A stretch of 10,603 nucleotides of DNA from an uncultured Methanosarcinales archaeon (lineage in GTDB: Archaea > Nanobdellota > Nanobdellia > Woesearchaeales > JAGVZT01): the NCBI GenBank assembly GCA_964419615.1, contig CAYQPU010000040.1:1-10603 (forward strand). The letters run 5' to 3'. Position numbers and translations under genes: made by a program. The notes beneath the pieces are model-generated. The model did not search any database. It was not told the DNA's origin and saw only the letters and a list, made by a program, of their open reading frames with translations. This document shows, one piece after another, positions 5,437-10,603 of the stretch (the stretch's first letter is position 1; every line of letters begins with the position of its first letter).

Positions 5437-6573
5437 ATGAAGAAAATCCTTTGGTTATTAATAGCAATTCTAACTATTCAAACAGGCTATTCAATAGGAG
5501 TTGGACCTGCATTTAACACATTAGAATACCAACCAAACACAATCCAAAGTGATTATCTAAAAGTATACAACACAGAAGATAAAGAATTCTATGCCGTGTT
5601 AAGTGTAGAAGGAGGACTCAAAGAATATCTAATACTTGATGACACTCAAATTTACATCCCATCAAATGAAGATTTTAAAAGAATCTATTATCATGTACAA
5701 TACCCAGAATTAGAACCCGGATCTTATCAAACAAGAATAAGAATAATAGAAACACCACAAAATGTTGAAGGTGAATCAGTAATAATAGCAGCTTTGGGTG
5801 TTTCTCATAAAATTGGCCTTGAAGTTTCAGCATATGGAAAATACCTGAAAATAAGTTTTGTTGTGGAAGACAAAACACTAAAAGTAACTTTGGACAACAT
5901 TGGAGAAGAAGATGTTGAACAGGTTGATATTGAATTCACATTAACAGATGATAAACAATCATTAGTATATGAAGAAACAGCTTCAAACATTAATGTTGGA
6001 CAAAAACAAATCATCACAAGAAATTTACAAAAAGTAGAAGATGGAGTATATCAAGCACTGTTAAACGTAACATATGATGGAATAAACAAAATTATAAAGC
6101 AAGAAATTGCAATCGGTCAAATAATAGTCACAATAAACAGTATGGATATTGCAGACTTTGAAATTGGAGACATTGCAAAAATAGATCTGGAAGTAGAAAA
6201 CAAATGGAACAGAGAACTAAATAATCTAAATCTGGAAATGGAAGTTGTCAGAAACAACAAAATCTATGGTTCATATAAATCAGAAGACTTTAACCTTGCA
6301 CCAAACTCCAAAAAAACAATCTCAGCATATTGGGACACACAAGACAAACCAGTTGGAGACTATGATGCACACTTTACAGTAAACTATGCAGGCAAAAAAG
6401 CAGAACAAAGCTTTATCTTAACACTAGGCGAAGAAAAAGTAACAGCAGCAAAACCAAAAGAATTCAATTGGCTAATCCCAATAAGCATAATAGCAGTAAT
6501 AATGTTAATAGTCGTGATCTTGTTATTGGTCAGATACTTTAAACAGAAAGGGGAACCTGTGATAATGCATTAG
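5437..6573 (+). CDS. Secreted, C-terminally membrane-anchored protein with Ig-like/CARDB-type beta domains (S-layer/COG1361-like)
   Basis: N-terminal signal peptide (MKKILWLLIAILTIQTGYS), beta-rich repeats (VTLDNIGEEDV, EVENKWNRELNN, YWDTQDKPVGDYDAHFTVNY), and a C-terminal TM helix (WLIPISIIAVIMLIVVILLLV) followed by RYFKQK. Confidence 0.75.
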   Translation: MKKILWLLIAILTIQTGYSIGVGPAFNTLEYQPNTIQSDYLKVYNTEDKEFYAVLSVEGGLKEYLILDDTQIYIPSNEDFKRIYYHVQYPELEPGSYQTRIRIIETPQNVEGESVIIAALGVSHKIGLEVSAYGKYLKISFVVEDKTLKVTLDNIGEEDVEQVDIEFTLTDDKQSLVYEETASNINVGQKQIITRNLQKVEDGVYQALLNVTYDGINKIIKQEIAIGQIIVTINSMDIADFEIGDIAKIDLEVENKWNRELNNLNLEMEVVRNNKIYGSYKSEDFNLAPNSKKTISAYWDTQDKPVGDYDAHFTVNYAGKKAEQSFILTLGEEKVTAAKPKEFNWLIPISIIAVIMLIVVILLLVRYFKQKGEPVIMH

Positions 6574-6604
6574 GAGAACAATTAGTCTCACTTAATGCAA
6601 TCAA

Positions 6605-6907
6605 TTATTGTTGATCTTTATGCGAGAACTCAACAAATCTTAATATCTTATCTTTTGAGTAATATTTATAATAAAGCCTAAATGAATCCAGGTAAACTTC
6701 TTGTTCACCTTTTCTACTGTATTGTACATACTTCCCAATATTGGGATTCTTTACAATTTTCAGGATTTGCTTGAACAATCTAAACTTAACTTTGTTGTCT
6801 CTTATTTTCCTTATTTGTTTATCAAATTCATAAGAGAAGCGCAACTTAATCTTGTTTTGCTTAGCTGCCCTCATAATTAATGTTCTTAATGTTTTAATCT
6901 CACTCAT
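6605..6907 (-). CDS. RelE/ParE-superfamily toxin
   Basis: 100 aa, very basic, with a RelE-like layout (FSYEFDKQIRKI...IVKNPNIGK...FRLYYKY...FSHKD). Its start overlaps the antitoxin stop (ATGA at 6907-6904). Confidence 0.75.
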   Translation of the reverse strand: MSEIKTLRTLIMRAAKQNKIKLRFSYEFDKQIRKIRDNKVKFRLFKQILKIVKNPNIGKYVQYSRKGEQEVYLDSFRLYYKYYSKDKILRFVEFSHKDQQ

Positions 6908-7173
6908 CTTAGAACATCTTCTGCCTTTAGTTCTTTTCCCTTCTCCATTTCTGTGAGAATTTTATCATGCCTCATCGCCCTAACAAAATCCTCTGCATAT
7001 TTGCTCTTTTTCTTCTTAATATTCAAGACATCTTTGATTGGTTTAATAATAATTTCATTATCTTCTGACATAACCATTAACTGCTCATCTTTAACAAGGC
7101 CAAGTTTTGTCCGAATATTATTTGGAATCACAATTTGCCCTTTTGTACTTATTTTTACTAATCCTATCTCCAT
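6904..7173 (-). CDS. AbrB/MazE/SpoVT-family antitoxin
   Basis: KISTKGQIVIPNNIRTKLGL...IIIKP is the classic AbrB signature. ATG 7173 is preferred over TTG 7185 because SD GGTGA lies at 7183-7179. Confidence 0.9.
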   Translation of the reverse strand: MEIGLVKISTKGQIVIPNNIRTKLGLVKDEQLMVMSEDNEIIIKPIKDVLNIKKKKSKYAEDFVRAMRHDKILTEMEKGKELKAEDVLR

Positions 7174-7183
7174 TTTTTTCACC

Positions 7184-7199
7184 AAAAGTAGGAAAAGTA
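7184..7199 (-). promoter_or_regulatory. Candidate autoregulatory operator of the abrB-relE pair
   Basis: Direct repeat AAAAGTA at 7184-7190 and 7193-7199, lying between a weak TATA-like sequence (7214-7206) and the SD. Confidence 0.3.
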
Positions 7200-7237
7200 A
7201 GACGGCTTAAATATCTTGTGTTTTTAATACCTTGTAT

Positions 7238-7353
7238 ACCTCCAGTGTATTTCACTGGATGGGTGCGTAGCAATACTAAGTGTTCAACAAAGCGAGTGGC
7301 CCGAGCCACTAAGTGGCGAGGATGCCACTGGTCTATAGACCATTGGTGGTTAC
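7238..7353 (+). mobile_element. Non-coding multi-hairpin element resembling an IS200/IS605 end (PATE-like remnant or orphan omega-RNA scaffold)
   Basis: 116 nt at about 51% GC (59/116) in an AT-rich context. Hairpins: TCCAGTG-TATTT-CACTGGA, GTA-GCAA-TAC, alternating AGTGGC/GCCACT hexamers, and a terminal imperfect hairpin GCCAcTGGTC-TATA-GACCAtTGGT followed by GGTTAC. The last part resembles IS200/IS605 right ends (subterminal hairpin then GTTCAC/GTTGAC). No tnpA/tnpB in the window. Confidence 0.5.
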
Positions 7354-7384
7354 GAGCCTTTTGGCAATTGATAATCTGGTAAAT

Positions 7385-8020
7385 TCATTTAGATTGTGCT
7401 TCATACAACCTATCAAAACACCTTTTTTTAATAAAACTTATCTTCTTTAAGCTCTGCATGGTCTCTTCCAAATCAATCAAAACCCAAGGTAAATTATCTT
7501 TCTGTTTTATTGCTTGATTTACAACAAAGTCCCAATCAAGATTTTTTTCAATTTTTACAGTTGTTTCAATATCTTCATAGTCTCTTTCTCTATTTGTAAT
7601 TGATTTTAATAAAACCAACAATTCAACCATTGGAACATAAAGAGTAAGTTCTCTTTTTCCTATGAAATCATGTCTTTGAACAAAAGAATCAAAATCAAGC
7701 TTGAACCCAAAAACAGACTTCACAAATAAATCAAATCTTTCCTCACCTCTTGAAAAAATCTCTGGTTTTGATTGATTTTCTTTTCTCTTTTTATCATAAA
7801 CATCTACAATTGCAGTTTTCTTATATCCAAGTTCTTCAATAGCTTTGACAAAGATCTTTTTAGATTTCTCATCCTTAAACACAATATCAATGTCTTTTGT
7901 AGTATTCTTATAATTAGAAAACATCATTGCAGTTCCACCAATAGCAAAGCATTCAATACTCTCTTCCAAATATTCTGCAATAAGTTTGAACAATTCTTCT
8001 TGATCTTTTGTGTTGATCAT
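7385..8020 (-). CDS. Nucleotidyltransferase, AbiEii/DUF6036-like (putative type IV TA toxin)
   Basis: IGGTAM...TTKDIDIV is the Pol-beta NTase motif (GG + DxD). It also has ERFDLF and the LLVLLKS...RERDYEDI helix typical of AbiEii-like proteins. ATGA-coupled to the upstream gene. Confidence 0.8.
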   Translation of the reverse strand: MINTKDQEELFKLIAEYLEESIECFAIGGTAMMFSNYKNTTKDIDIVFKDEKSKKIFVKAIEELGYKKTAIVDVYDKKRKENQSKPEIFSRGEERFDLFVKSVFGFKLDFDSFVQRHDFIGKRELTLYVPMVELLVLLKSITNRERDYEDIETTVKIEKNLDWDFVVNQAIKQKDNLPWVLIDLEETMQSLKKISFIKKRCFDRLYEAQSK

Positions 8021-8487
8021 CTTTCATATCTCTTTGGCATTGTTTTGCACTTTGTTATCTTTCTTGTATAATCATATTGTTTATATAGCTTATCCAGCAC
8101 ATTCCGTTGTTTTGCTAGATCAAACAATCTTTTCCAATTAGTAATATGTCTAAACAAATGAGAAACAGCTGTTTTTATTCTAACATCATCAAACTTAAGA
8201 CCATCAACAATTGCATGCTCAACAGTGTATCTTCCATATGTATAATGCTCAAACCAAGGATTAAGTTTCTCAGGTGAATACTTATTAACAACATAAAAAA
8301 ATCCATTCTCCTTGTTTTTAGGTTTGTAATGAACTGTGTATATTCTTTTTTGTCTACCTCCTCCACTCACACTAACTAACCTTTGTTTCTTTAGCTTTGA
8401 TAACTTATTTATAGCAGATTGCCTAGTCAATCCTTGTTTTCTTGCATATAATTCTAGTGTGTATTTTCCTGTTTTTGATGTCATCAT
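8017..8487 (-). CDS. Winged-HTH protein, putative AbiEi-like antitoxin/regulator
   Basis: N-terminal wHTH (LELYARKQGLTRQSAINKLSKLKKQRLV), then Y-T-V-E-H-A-I-V-D resembling the AbiEi C-terminal T.E..LVD motif. TATA at 8515-8508. The start may be the second ATG (8484). Confidence 0.7.
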   Translation of the reverse strand: MMTSKTGKYTLELYARKQGLTRQSAINKLSKLKKQRLVSVSGGGRQKRIYTVHYKPKNKENGFFYVVNKYSPEKLNPWFEHYTYGRYTVEHAIVDGLKFDDVRIKTAVSHLFRHITNWKRLFDLAKQRNVLDKLYKQYDYTRKITKCKTMPKRYER

Positions 8488-8594
8488 ACATTATCTATTT
8501 GGACCATTATATAAATATTTCTATTTCTATATTATATTAAATTGTAATCTACACAAGTTATGCATTTAGACATATCTTCTCAATAAAGTTAAAA

Positions 8595-8624
8595 TACTTA
8601 CAATAAGTACAGATTATTAATATA
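8595..8624 (+). promoter_or_regulatory. Short inverted repeat and TATA box for ORF 8646
   Basis: TACTTA-CAA-TAAGTA (8595-8609), then TTAATATA (8617-8624) ending 21 nt before ATG 8646. Confidence 0.4.
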
Positions 8625-8645
8625 TCAAACTTGATTCCCACTGCT

Positions 8646-9227
8646 ATGATTGATTTTTATGCAGTAGATGGGTATGCATTCCTGAACCAGGAAGAAAATG
8701 ATTTTGAAGGTCATTTTGAAGCATTCTCAAGACTCTTAAAAAGATATGAAAGAGAAAACCTATTGATAAGATTCTTTAAGTTTAATGAAGAGCCTGAAAA
8801 AAAGCTTGAGAGAATCATTAAACAAGGACATGATAGAAAACGATGGGCGCGGTTTGAGGGAGAAGGAAAAGAGCAGCTAATGGAGTTAGGATACGGTCCA
8901 CTTGATGTAATCTTTGCATATCCTTATGCTCCAAATAATAATCATAAAGGGTATAAATTTAATTTTAATGATTGGTTTGACATAAATCCAAAATATCTGG
9001 AAACATTCGGCGCACTAATTATTGATAAAAATCTATCCAAATATGAAGGTCCATTGGTAAACCAATGGCATACTTTTGGTCAAAAAGATGAAAAGCTAAG
9101 AAGGGATGGTGTTTTATGTGTTGCTGTTTTTGAATTCTCTGAAACTAACAAATCAGTGAATGCTGTCCACTGTGCAACCAGAACAAACCCTATCCAAGCA
9201 TTTAGAGAAAAGGGTTTGTTGTTATAA
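8646..9227 (+). CDS. Hypothetical protein (193 aa from ATG 8646)
   Basis: Long open frame. The track's TTG 8631 is only 6 nt past the TATA box, so in-frame ATG 8646 is preferred. No recognised motif. Confidence 0.7.
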   Translation: MIDFYAVDGYAFLNQEENDFEGHFEAFSRLLKRYERENLLIRFFKFNEEPEKKLERIIKQGHDRKRWARFEGEGKEQLMELGYGPLDVIFAYPYAPNNNHKGYKFNFNDWFDINPKYLETFGALIIDKNLSKYEGPLVNQWHTFGQKDEKLRRDGVLCVAVFEFSETNKSVNAVHCATRTNPIQAFREKGLLL

Positions 9228-9272
9228 TAAAAAATAACTCAACACAGGAACTATCAAACATCCCTTTGCATG
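9222..9272 (-). pseudogene. Orphan copy 3 of the TctA-family gene 3' end
   Basis: Translates HAKGCLIVPVLSYFLL*, versus HAMGCLILPVLTYFLM* in the gene. No indels and the same stop position. Confidence 0.9.
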
Positions 9273-9339
9273 CCATCTTTTTGAAAAAAAGCTGGACCAA
9301 AAACTAGTGGGTTTCCTCACTTTGTTCGTCAAGCCCACA
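9273..9339. repeat. Double-hairpin element X
   Basis: CCAtCTTTTT-GAA-AAAAAGcTGG plus ACCAAAAA, then stem GTGGGTTT/AAGCCCAC enclosing CTCACTTTGTTCG. Confidence 0.8.
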
Positions 9340-9390
9340 CTATAATAAAAAATAGGATAACACTGGTAGAATCAAACACCCCATAGCATG
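9340..9390 (-). pseudogene. Orphan copy 2 of the TctA-family gene 3' end
   Basis: Translates HAMGCLILPVLSYFLL*. It has 9 nt differences from the gene copy, 7 of them at third codon positions. Confidence 0.9.
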
Positions 9391-9455
9391 CAAACTTTTT
9401 TCGGAAAAAAGTTTGATCAAAAAAGGATTTTCTCACTTCTTTCGAAAATCATTTA
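9391..9455. repeat. Double-hairpin element Y (homologue of X)
   Basis: Perfect 11-bp stem CAAACTTTTTT-CGG-AAAAAAGTTTG plus ATCAAAAAA, then GATTTTC/GAAAATC stem with CTCACTTCTTTCG spanning its loop. Confidence 0.8.
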
Positions 9456-10603
9456 CTACATTAAGAAATAAGTTAATACTGGAAGTATCAAACACCCCAT
9501 TGCATGGTTTCTCCCAATTTCTTTTAACGGAGCTATTAATCCAATAGCAGCACCAGTAATCAACACAATTATCCCCAAAGGACCATTCAAAATCAAACTC
9601 ATAACAAACACTAAAACGACAATCAACACAACTAATTTCTTATAATTAACCTTAACAATCAGCTTAGAAAACACTTTTGAAAACCACAAAGTTAACAAAA
9701 CAGAAATAGAACCTGCAATTAAAAACACAAAAATCAAAATCAAAAACGAACTCAAATCAATCTCCATTAATTTAGCTATAACAACAATTGTTCCATCTTT
9801 AGCTTTATCTAAAACATAAAACGTAACCAAAGAAAACACAACACTCATTGTACCCATAGCGCCAACTAAAGCTAAATACCCTTTATCCTTAACATCTTTT
9901 ACAATCTGATTGCTAATCACAGCACCTTGTGCAGGTCCAAGCCCTGGAAAAAATTGAATTAAAAAAACAGCAATACTACTTCCCAATATTGCTTTAAACA
10001 AATCTTTGAGTTTAAGATCAATTTTAGTCTCTATTTTCTGTGTAGGAATTTTTGTATTTTCATAATAACTCAAAACAAGTCCAGAAACACCAAACAAACC
10101 AGATAACATTGGAAATAAAGGCTCTTTAAAATTAGGAATAGAAAACACAACTAACCCCAAAGTTCCAGACAACATAAACAAAATAAAACTCCATAATTTC
10201 TTTTGCTCTTTTAGGATCATATAAATCATCAACACCAAAAGCAAATACCCAACATAAGGTTTTAACAAATCATAAACTTTAGTTGCAATTAACATAAAAA
10301 CCGGAATCAACACAATCGCAACAATTAGTCCAATATAAGTTCCAAAAATAGTTATCTTAACAGCTTGATAACCCTCACCATTTAATAACATCTTCTGACC
10401 AGGCAAAACACTTAATGCATTCTCGTTCTCAGGTGCACCAAGATAAATAGATGGAATAGTATCTAGAAAAGAATGCACAACGCTAAGTGAAATAATAAAC
10501 ACAGCCAAGGAAAGAGGAGACATAAAACCTAGTAGCCAAGGCGAAATCGTAAACATTGCAGTTGCAACTAAGTTAACGTGGATACCTGGGATGATGCCTG
10601 TTA
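9456..10603 (-). CDS. Archaeal TctA/DUF112-family (tripartite tricarboxylate transporter-like) membrane protein, 5'-partial
   Basis: The frame stays open upstream of the track's ATG 10556 to the window edge, giving TGIIPGIHVNLVATAMF (family GxxPGxHxN motif). Also HSFLDTIPSIYLGAP, LPGQKMLLNG.G, PMLSGLFG and FFPGLGPAQ. Highly hydrophobic. Confidence 0.88.
   Translation of the reverse strand, partial: TGIIPGIHVNLVATAMFTISPWLLGFMSPLSLAVFIISLSVVHSFLDTIPSIYLGAPENENALSVLPGQKMLLNGEGYQAVKITIFGTYIGLIVAIVLIPVFMLIATKVYDLLKPYVGYLLLVLMIYMILKEQKKLWSFILFMLSGTLGLVVFSIPNFKEPLFPMLSGLFGVSGLVLSYYENTKIPTQKIETKIDLKLKDLFKAILGSSIAVFLIQFFPGLGPAQGAVISNQIVKDVKDKGYLALVGAMGTMSVVFSLVTFYVLDKAKDGTIVVIAKLMEIDLSSFLILIFVFLIAGSISVLLTLWFSKVFSKLIVKVNYKKLVVLIVVLVFVMSLILNGPLGIIVLITGAAIGLIAPLKEIGRNHAMGCLILPVLTYFLM

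Follow-up and report, generated by a model that had tools for sequence, protein, structure and literature searches.

Organization of the 3' end of tctA

The window analysed here is a stretch of 10,603 nucleotides that forms a whole contig (C40) of a metagenome-derived Woesearchaeales bin (G000; 1.48 Mb in 64 contigs, 2.3% contamination), and it contains a tctA-family transporter gene whose 3' end is present three times (Table 1; G, C and L numbers denote genomes, contigs and loci). The product of the gene matches Pfam PF01970 (TctA) over profile positions 14-422 of 423 (E 1.9e-52), with 178.7 bits against a gathering cut-off of 28.9, and belongs to this family. Orthologues of tctA are found in 38 of 41 relatives, and the TctA of G001, the only congener of the window genome, is 91% identical.

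The repeated part consists of the last 51 nt of tctA, that is, the last 17 codons (16 codons and the stop). The three copies lie on the minus strand, 116 and 118 bp apart, and align in register without indels; each opens with CATGC. This arrangement, aligned stop codons included, had been described in an original prediction made from the letters of the sequence, and repeat analysis confirms it: a 29-nt degenerate pattern has exactly three sites in the window, which are the three copies, whereas 200 shuffled sequences yielded no site. Perfect identity between any two copies extends over at most 14 nt. Homology is also seen between the two spacers, of 65 and 67 nt, whose alignment requires indels that are absent from the coding parts, and the repeat is therefore a unit of ~117 bp rather than the coding tail alone. 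This homology of the spacers had gone unnoticed before.

The array is best read as a live 3' end of tctA followed by two displaced ones. No start codon or open reading frame (ORF) leads into the silent copies that could allow their translation as small ORFs or within another protein, and the 65-67-nt spacers contain no ORF. The stop codon of copy 3 overlaps that of the convergent ORF at 8631-9227. The entire 321-nt array has no dispersed copies in G000, where the hairpin module of the spacers alone is dispersed (see below), and neither a protein-based scan nor a scan with the pattern of the spacers' hairpin B found relatives in metagenomes.

Table 1. Coordinates of the array, its host gene and the adjacent accessory genes in the window
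Feature	Position	Strand	Description
tctA-family transporter gene	9456..10603	-	Pfam PF01970; 5' end lost at contig end
Copy 1 (W1)	9456..9506	-	live gene end, last 16 codons plus stop, continuous with the ORF; HAMGCLILPVLTYFLM and stop
Spacer 1	9391..9455	-	two-hairpin module; hairpin A ~9426-9450, hairpin B 9391-9415
Copy 2 (W2)	9340..9390	-	displaced, untranslated end; HAMGCLILPVLSYFLL and stop
Spacer 2	9273..9339	-	two-hairpin module; hairpin A ~9307-9338, hairpin B 9273-9295
Copy 3 (W3)	9222..9272	-	displaced end; M>K in the otherwise invariant HxMGC motif; HAKGCLIVPVLSYFLL and stop
Accessory block	7227..9221		between array and conserved MazE-type pair; unique to the window genome
ORF198	8631-9227	+	orphan, convergent with the array; inside accessory block
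ORF156	8017-8487	-	inside accessory block
DUF6036 nucleotidyltransferase gene	7385-8020	-	inside accessory block; Pfam

Divergence of the copies

The differences between the copies are concentrated at third codon positions. W1 and W2 differ at 9 sites (2/0/7 at codon positions 1/2/3; P = 0.001), W1 and W3 at 11 sites (2/2/7; P = 0.016), and the two silent copies, W2 and W3, at 12 sites (2/2/8; P = 0.0002), where P is the chance that equally many substitutions, scattered at random over one copy (kappa 2, 20,000 trials), alter no more amino acids than observed. These numbers of differences, together with the peptides, the CATGC starts and a serine codon that reads TCC in copy 2 and AGT in copy 3, reproduce the original prediction exactly, and the formal test adds the significance that it had lacked. 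The encoded peptides differ by just 2-4 conservative residues; copy 3 shows M>K and L>V.

Among W1, W2, W3 and the orthologous end of G001 the distances range from 8 to 15 of 51 nt, and W1 is the copy nearest to the G001 end (8/51 differences). Because the copies are as distant from one another (9-15 of 51 nt) as are the orthologous ends of different species, each copy was probably once a working end of tctA in another lineage, as had been proposed. The coding-type pattern of substitution supports the view that the silent copies diverged under selection and formerly served as the ends of other tctA alleles.

Recurrence at tctA in other Woesearchaeales

At tctA the arrangement is present in at least five Woesearchaeales lineages besides that of the window. 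A search of 401 genomes of the order with the pattern H-x-M-G-C-L-x-x-P, for which a reversed control pattern gave ~1 hit, showed that in G000, G029, G114, G388 and G339 a single contig carries at least two copies on the same strand. The material between the copies varies. G029 has three copies, separated by an MNT and HepT toxin-antitoxin pair and a Fic gene; the two copies of G388 bracket a TrmB regulator and an unknown gene; those of G114, on a 351-kb contig, bracket an unknown 159-aa ORF; and those of G339 are separated by 73 nt without an ORF. The congener G001 has a live end, a 59-nt spacer resembling spacer 2 of the window and a degenerate second copy, which is truncated and has lost its His codon; its unit resembles a chimera of the window spacers 1 and 2. 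The original prediction had named orthologues as the place to look for additional 3' ends and for islands or integrases at the same junction. The multiple ends are there, some of them bracketing cargo (MNT/HepT, Fic, TrmB), but an integrase beside the arrays was not found.

Few amino-acid changes are again the rule. The G339 pair shows 12 differences, 12/12 of them synonymous (P < 5e-5), and its peptides are identical; the G388 pair has 6 differences and 0 amino-acid changes; and the G029 pairs give P = 0.0007-0.007 against random substitution. In G029 the middle copy is a mosaic, with its left 42 nt equal to those of the distal copy and its 18-nt tail equal to that of the live copy, a pattern expected if both cassettes entered by crossover inside the repeat. 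This three-copy array, in which the repeat copies are mosaics of each other, lies in G029:C3:7000-19000 (L074), and a ribosomal protein L35Ae-like gene follows its last copy. An integrase gene 10 kb away has, at a distance of 160 nt, a 19-nt stretch that matches the repeat; this stretch is treated as a chance match because it falls inside another ORF and a ribosomal-protein gene stands between it and the array.

The genus g170, to which G339 belongs, provides the comparison with an empty site. In G339 the order is tctA body, a first end (E1), the 73-nt spacer, a second end (E2), the promoter-like TTTATAAA and a lipoprotein gene. Its congeners G199 and G306 have a single tctA end followed by the same downstream region, and since they keep the uninterrupted site, the 124-bp "E1 plus spacer" of G339 represents an insertion at the His codon and E2 the resident end. 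Across eight species of g170 the orthologous ends encode nearly the same peptide and differ at 8-18 of 51 nt, a range that includes the 12 differences between E1 and E2. Sliding identity of the G339 gene body to its relatives gave no donor-tract signal either way. In other genera tctA has a single copy of its end, with unrelated flanks.

The spacers as two-hairpin modules

By sequence comparison, the spacers are assigned to a module family that forms the non-canonical tRNA introns of this lineage. The module has the layout [hairpin A]-TTTTGR-[hairpin B] and occurs at least 23 times in G000 by regular expression and 29 times by nhmmer; most of these copies border on a tRNA gene, 14 at the T loop and several at the D loop. 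When a profile was built with nhmmer from 21 tRNA-intron modules, all outside contig C40, it matched the window in the spacers only (9279-9313, E 3.3e-5; 9394-9436, E 3.7e-5), with the next best match at E 0.09. The spacers are thus homologous to bona fide tRNA introns, a kinship of the hairpin tail that goes beyond the earlier reading of the locus.

Both hairpins B mark a precise boundary. In spacer 1 hairpin B has perfect 12-nt arms and abuts the CATGC of copy 2, and in spacer 2 it abuts the CATGC of copy 3. The hairpin-B variant of spacer 1 (TCAAAC..GTTTG) is also present in four tRNA introns of G000. The variant of spacer 2 (TCCAGC..GATGG) is found nowhere else in G000 and is present in G001-G004, G030 and G119. 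Spacer 2 shares 82% identity over 66 nt with a tRNA-intron module in G004:C15 (BLAST), and its hairpin B is 87-97% identical to loci in G002, G003 and G001 (91-97% in G002/G003). At each of the four loci inspected (G002:C10, G003:C9, G003:C1 and G004:C15) the module splits the T arm of a tRNA gene into two halves and is in antisense orientation. Two genomes flagged as unpublished, G006 and G403, appear among the rows of the searches, and none of the conclusions depends on them.

Further module copies of G000 include C21:14722-14786, C3:41919-41984, C32:6945-7010 and C32:19665-19719, often accompanied by a third hairpin. The examples checked by hand are tRNA genes with non-canonical introns of 100-150 nt, sometimes two per tRNA; matching acceptor stems were found in two of the four genes checked (C21:14752 and C3:41950), and in C21 the T stem matches too. 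At the hairpin-associated loci on which ARAGORN was run, it called no tRNA gene except one tRNA-Phe. Rfam contains no match to the window or G001 (E up to 1) or to the loci of the hairpin element (E up to 5). One module copy is situated at G000:C48:4780-4900, directly before the start codon of rpl2; a possible decayed, displaced copy of the rpl2 start, with the frame RLLRGKRKALG, may lie upstream of it.

Two tRNA genes in distant genomes display the architecture of the window. An intact tRNA in G119 (Rfam RF00005, 54 bits) precedes, in the orientation seen in the window, a hairpin A, a hairpin B and then the last 22 nt of that tRNA in degenerate form; in G030 the same series ends in a repeat that is identical over 22 nt to a tRNA 3' end. 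This succession of target end, hairpin A, hairpin B and displaced target end therefore characterizes the module family and not tctA. At all three kinds of target (tctA, the G119 tRNA and the G030 tRNA) the 3' base of hairpin B is the exact joint to the displaced copy.

The 73-nt spacer of G339 consists of 13 nt and a ~60-nt double-hairpin element, which is dispersed in g170 and unrelated to the window module. The consensus of this element (G339 L077:6764-6825; L108-L136) is ATGCAC-stem1-GGGCGACC-stem2-GAGTA, its stems covary, and it is not in Rfam. A covariance model (R1) counts 13 copies in G406, 9 in G408, 5 in G405, 4 in G399, 3 in G339 and 0 in G199/G306. Three copies are flanked by duplicated target ends, namely those of tctA, of another gene (43/47) and of a tRNA 3' end (21/22). 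G406:C17 contains a tandem triple of the element, and one copy is located inside a tRNA gene (L112).

Formation of the array

We consider it somewhat better than an even chance that a gene-less, target-restoring mini-cassette, composed of a foreign gene end and an intron-type hairpin module, entered serially at tctA. Each ~117-bp unit would comprise the last 17 codons of the tctA allele of another lineage and a ~66-nt two-hairpin module. Entering at the His codon of the conserved HxMGC motif, it would bring a new gene end together with its 3' flank and push the resident end downstream, where the latter would be untranslated and decay slowly. The order of events would then make copy 3 the oldest and copy 1 the newest and gene-proximal one. 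A decay gradient is visible: copy 3 carries M>K and L>V, and the second copy of G001 is His-less and truncated. The junctions would have been made by DNA recombination rather than RNA splicing, by an enzyme that is encoded elsewhere and acts in trans; either of two Xer-like recombinases from other contigs is a candidate, as is host homologous or illegitimate recombination. Alternatively, the third copy may have come from unequal recombination between different strains, each contributing a 2-copy allele, which would take the place of a second insertion.

The original prediction had proposed serial site-specific insertion of units made of a replacement end and a hairpin tail. The unit and its gene-proximal entry are supported by the 124-bp unit of G339 against the uninterrupted site of G199/G306 and by the tRNA ends of G119/G030. 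Site-specificity is not supported, as no integrase lies nearby and the left junction varies, and neither are two independent events required, since copies 2 and 3 could stem from the unequal exchange just mentioned. As in integrative elements, the insert is flanked by direct repeats that copy the end of the target gene, and the target is intact; the integrase that would accompany such an element is absent in and beside it in the window, the arrays and the module loci.

Several observations weigh against the mini-cassette. A Pfam scan of the window and inspection of the arrays and module loci revealed no recombinase or nuclease gene in or beside any unit. The PF00589 matches of G000 lie on contigs C39, C37 and C20 and none on C40; no integrase stands next to the module loci of G002-G004, G030 and G119; and the two Xer-like recombinases that each genome encodes elsewhere are candidates only. 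Those of G000 are located at C39:5751-6233 and C37:10673-11149, and a 420-aa integrase-like protein (C20:4555-5025) is a further candidate. The left edge of homology coincides with the His codon in the genus of the window and in G339 but lies 33-50 nt further upstream in G029, G114 and G388, which argues against one strict site-specific enzyme, and a double-stranded circle of 117 bp is physically awkward. Within the module family the two spacers of the window score lowest (17 bits, under the genome-wide nhmmer cut-off), and the stability of their folds is modest (z = -2.0 and -0.5). Target duplications flank only 3 of the ~28 copies of the g170 hairpin element. Lastly, the window has no empty-site relative of its own, as its sole congener, G001, carries an array too.

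A broader proposal, which we put forward tentatively and regard as rather doubtful, is that the conserved modules of two or three hairpins that account for most non-canonical tRNA introns of this DPANN lineage are mobile elements at the DNA level, and that the gain of tRNA introns and the displacement of gene ends are two outcomes of one trans-mobilised mini-element. Modules within tRNA genes would be tolerated because they are spliced, and tRNA 3' ends and protein genes would be invaded by modules carrying a recoded replacement end.

Alternative explanations

The most serious alternative, though on balance an unlikely one, is that the arrays are scars of ordinary recombination and involve no mobile unit. 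Donor DNA would have been anchored in the tctA body and joined illegitimately, by microhomology, just upstream of the resident end; the donor end and its 3' flank would have happened to hold a hairpin module, and later unequal exchange between 2-copy alleles would have raised the number to three. The lack of a nearby recombinase and the varying positions of the junctions among lineages both fit this account, as do the chimera-like unit of G001 and the joint in G339, where the end of the hairpin element and the gene share 4 nt of possible microhomology (ACCA). Other genes of G000 also have displaced ends around a single inserted gene, as seen on C21 for the end of an Lrp/AsnC gene and a Bro-N gene. 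What scars would not lead one to expect is a joint that coincides exactly with the 3' base of hairpin B in three kinds of target, random illegitimate joints having no reason to fall there, nor the same His codon joint in two unrelated lineages; moreover, copies with at most 14 nt of perfect identity are a poor substrate for homologous recombination.

Two long repeats of G000 were noted alongside. At G000:C21:5759-5859 and 6794-6894 (L085) the last 101 nt of the Lrp/AsnC-type gene recur 1035 bp downstream with 85% identity; the downstream repeat now contains stop codons, and the copies bracket a single gene with a Bro-N domain. At G000:C9:10408-10514 and 11323-11428 (L086) a 107-nt direct repeat with 92% identity, composed of the last 25 nt of a 429-aa gene and 80 nt downstream of it, brackets small ORFs beside an RHH/PIN toxin-antitoxin pair.

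An assembly chimera, in which the alleles of co-occurring strains have been concatenated, is very improbable. The window does come from a metagenome bin of 64 contigs with slight contamination, and the contig ends 1.1 kb away, inside tctA. However, without an exact word longer than 14 nt between the copies a k-mer graph has no repeat on which to loop, the hairpin|CATGC junctions are unique sequences that need spanning reads, and comparable arrays occur in independent assemblies (G001, G339, G029 and G114, the last on its 351-kb contig).

Local tandem duplication, after which the unused copies drifted neutrally and perhaps underwent gene conversion, is hardly credible. Slippage between hairpins is a known route to duplication, and the whole 117-bp unit, spacers included, is indeed in tandem. 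Neutral drift, however, is at odds with the third-position excess and the few amino-acid changes in all three pairs (the silent-silent pair among them, P = 0.0002), with the use of TCC by one silent copy and AGT by the other for the same serine, with indels that occur in the spacers and never in the coding parts, and with the same pattern at independent loci, where up to 12/12 differences are synonymous.

A functional switch deserves equally little credence, whether through DNA rearrangement to alternative C-termini, as in the cassette array for swapping C-termini that the original prediction had offered as its second option, or through RNA splicing of the units in the manner of bulge-helix-bulge introns. 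In its favour, the spacers share homology with true tRNA introns, and each silent copy has kept an intact frame and stop; yet peptides that differ by 2-4 conservative residues, and not at all in G339, leave nothing to switch and nothing to gain from swapping, direct repeats could only delete, and the modules are antisense relative to their orientation in tRNA genes. A search by eye and by two scans, which were noisy and recovered only one of three control tRNA introns, revealed no bulge-helix-bulge motif that would connect corresponding positions in two copies (spacing 116, 118 or 234); for the C21 tRNA intron the central helix TTCAA:TTGAA was recovered.

Two known systems were rejected outright: a diversity-generating retroelement, since the W1/W2 mismatches are not adenine-specific (of the 9, A is found in W2 at 2 and in W1 at 5) and a Pfam scan of the 10 larger ORFs of the window revealed no reverse transcriptase, and an integron gene cassette with attC site, since the boundaries GTTTG|CATGC and GATGG|CATGC lack a GTTRRRY core and there is neither an Rfam match nor an integrase.

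Relation to known systems

Target-restoring integrative elements at the 3' ends of tRNAs or genes, such as the tycheposons of Prochlorococcus, insert with their own copy of the target 3' end, so that the target stays intact, and when such target-restoring elements occur in tandem, later arrivals push earlier ones and partial target copies away (bioRxiv 10.1101/2020.12.28.424599). Elements of this type are kilobases long and encode a tyrosine recombinase or have related elements that do; the tctA unit, in contrast, is ~117 bp long and gene-less, with no integrase in reach.

A second parallel is provided by the WHO homing elements at FBA1 in Torulaspora/Lachancea yeasts, where the 3' end of a conserved gene has been replaced repeatedly (Coughlan et al. 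2020, PMC7282813). The old 3' fragments start at about the same position and are stacked downstream with the newest nearest to the gene, and the live end is chimeric and fast-evolving (PMC7282813). The tctA array resembles this in that all copies start at CATGC and decay increases from copy 1 to copy 3. However, WHO units encode an endonuclease that cuts sensitive alleles, whereas the tctA units are devoid of any ORF, and the WHO host is a eukaryote with meiosis, whereas the array resides in an archaeon.

For archaeal tRNA genes, Sugahara et al. (2012, PMC3293823) proposed that a mobile element, on integrating, can give rise to an intron and leave a fragment stranded. The present case is similar in that members of one hairpin family occur as tRNA introns and also beside stranded ends of tRNAs and genes. 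The insert described there is 1.8 kb long and encodes a recombinase, and PMC3293823 includes neither a protein-gene target nor a gene-less unit. In a limited literature search no published description of a ~117-bp gene-less unit built from a tRNA-intron module was found.

The tctA copies encode practically the same membrane helix. This sets them apart from Rhs/CDI arrays, in which orphan 3' tips are likewise stacked downstream of a live gene but encode different toxins with immunity genes and provide functional diversity.

The tctA 3' end emerges as a recurrent landing site across Woesearchaeales, occupied by toxin-antitoxin or other accessory cargo in some lineages and by hairpins only in others. 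A streamlined archaeal genome with few classical mobile elements thus still takes in foreign DNA at a conserved gene while the gene remains unbroken. The link between the hairpin tail and tRNA introns offers a testable route to the old question of the gain and spread of non-canonical tRNA introns in archaea. A lesson for annotation is that the terminal codons of a conserved gene may have a history unlike that of its remainder.

Genes adjacent to the array

The accessory block downstream of the array separates it from a region in which synteny of the window with G001 picks up again (6016-7226). No homologue of ORF198 was found in any of the 40 relatives searched. Two toxin-antitoxin-like modules adjoin each other at 6605-8487: a pair shared with G001 that consists of a MazE/AbrB-type antitoxin and a 100-aa partner, and the DUF6036 nucleotidyltransferase with its 156-aa upstream partner, present in the window genome only. 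At the border of the block away from the array, immediately upstream of the MazE-type pair, both the window (7238-7373) and G001 (L010 1190-1400) have GC-rich, strongly hairpinned stretches that are unrelated in sequence, and neither of these has a match in Rfam. A strong 10-bp hairpin (AACAAACCCT..AGGGTTTGTT, z = -2.7) at 9150-9221, right after copy 3, falls within the last codons of ORF198 and may be a shared terminator of the convergent genes.

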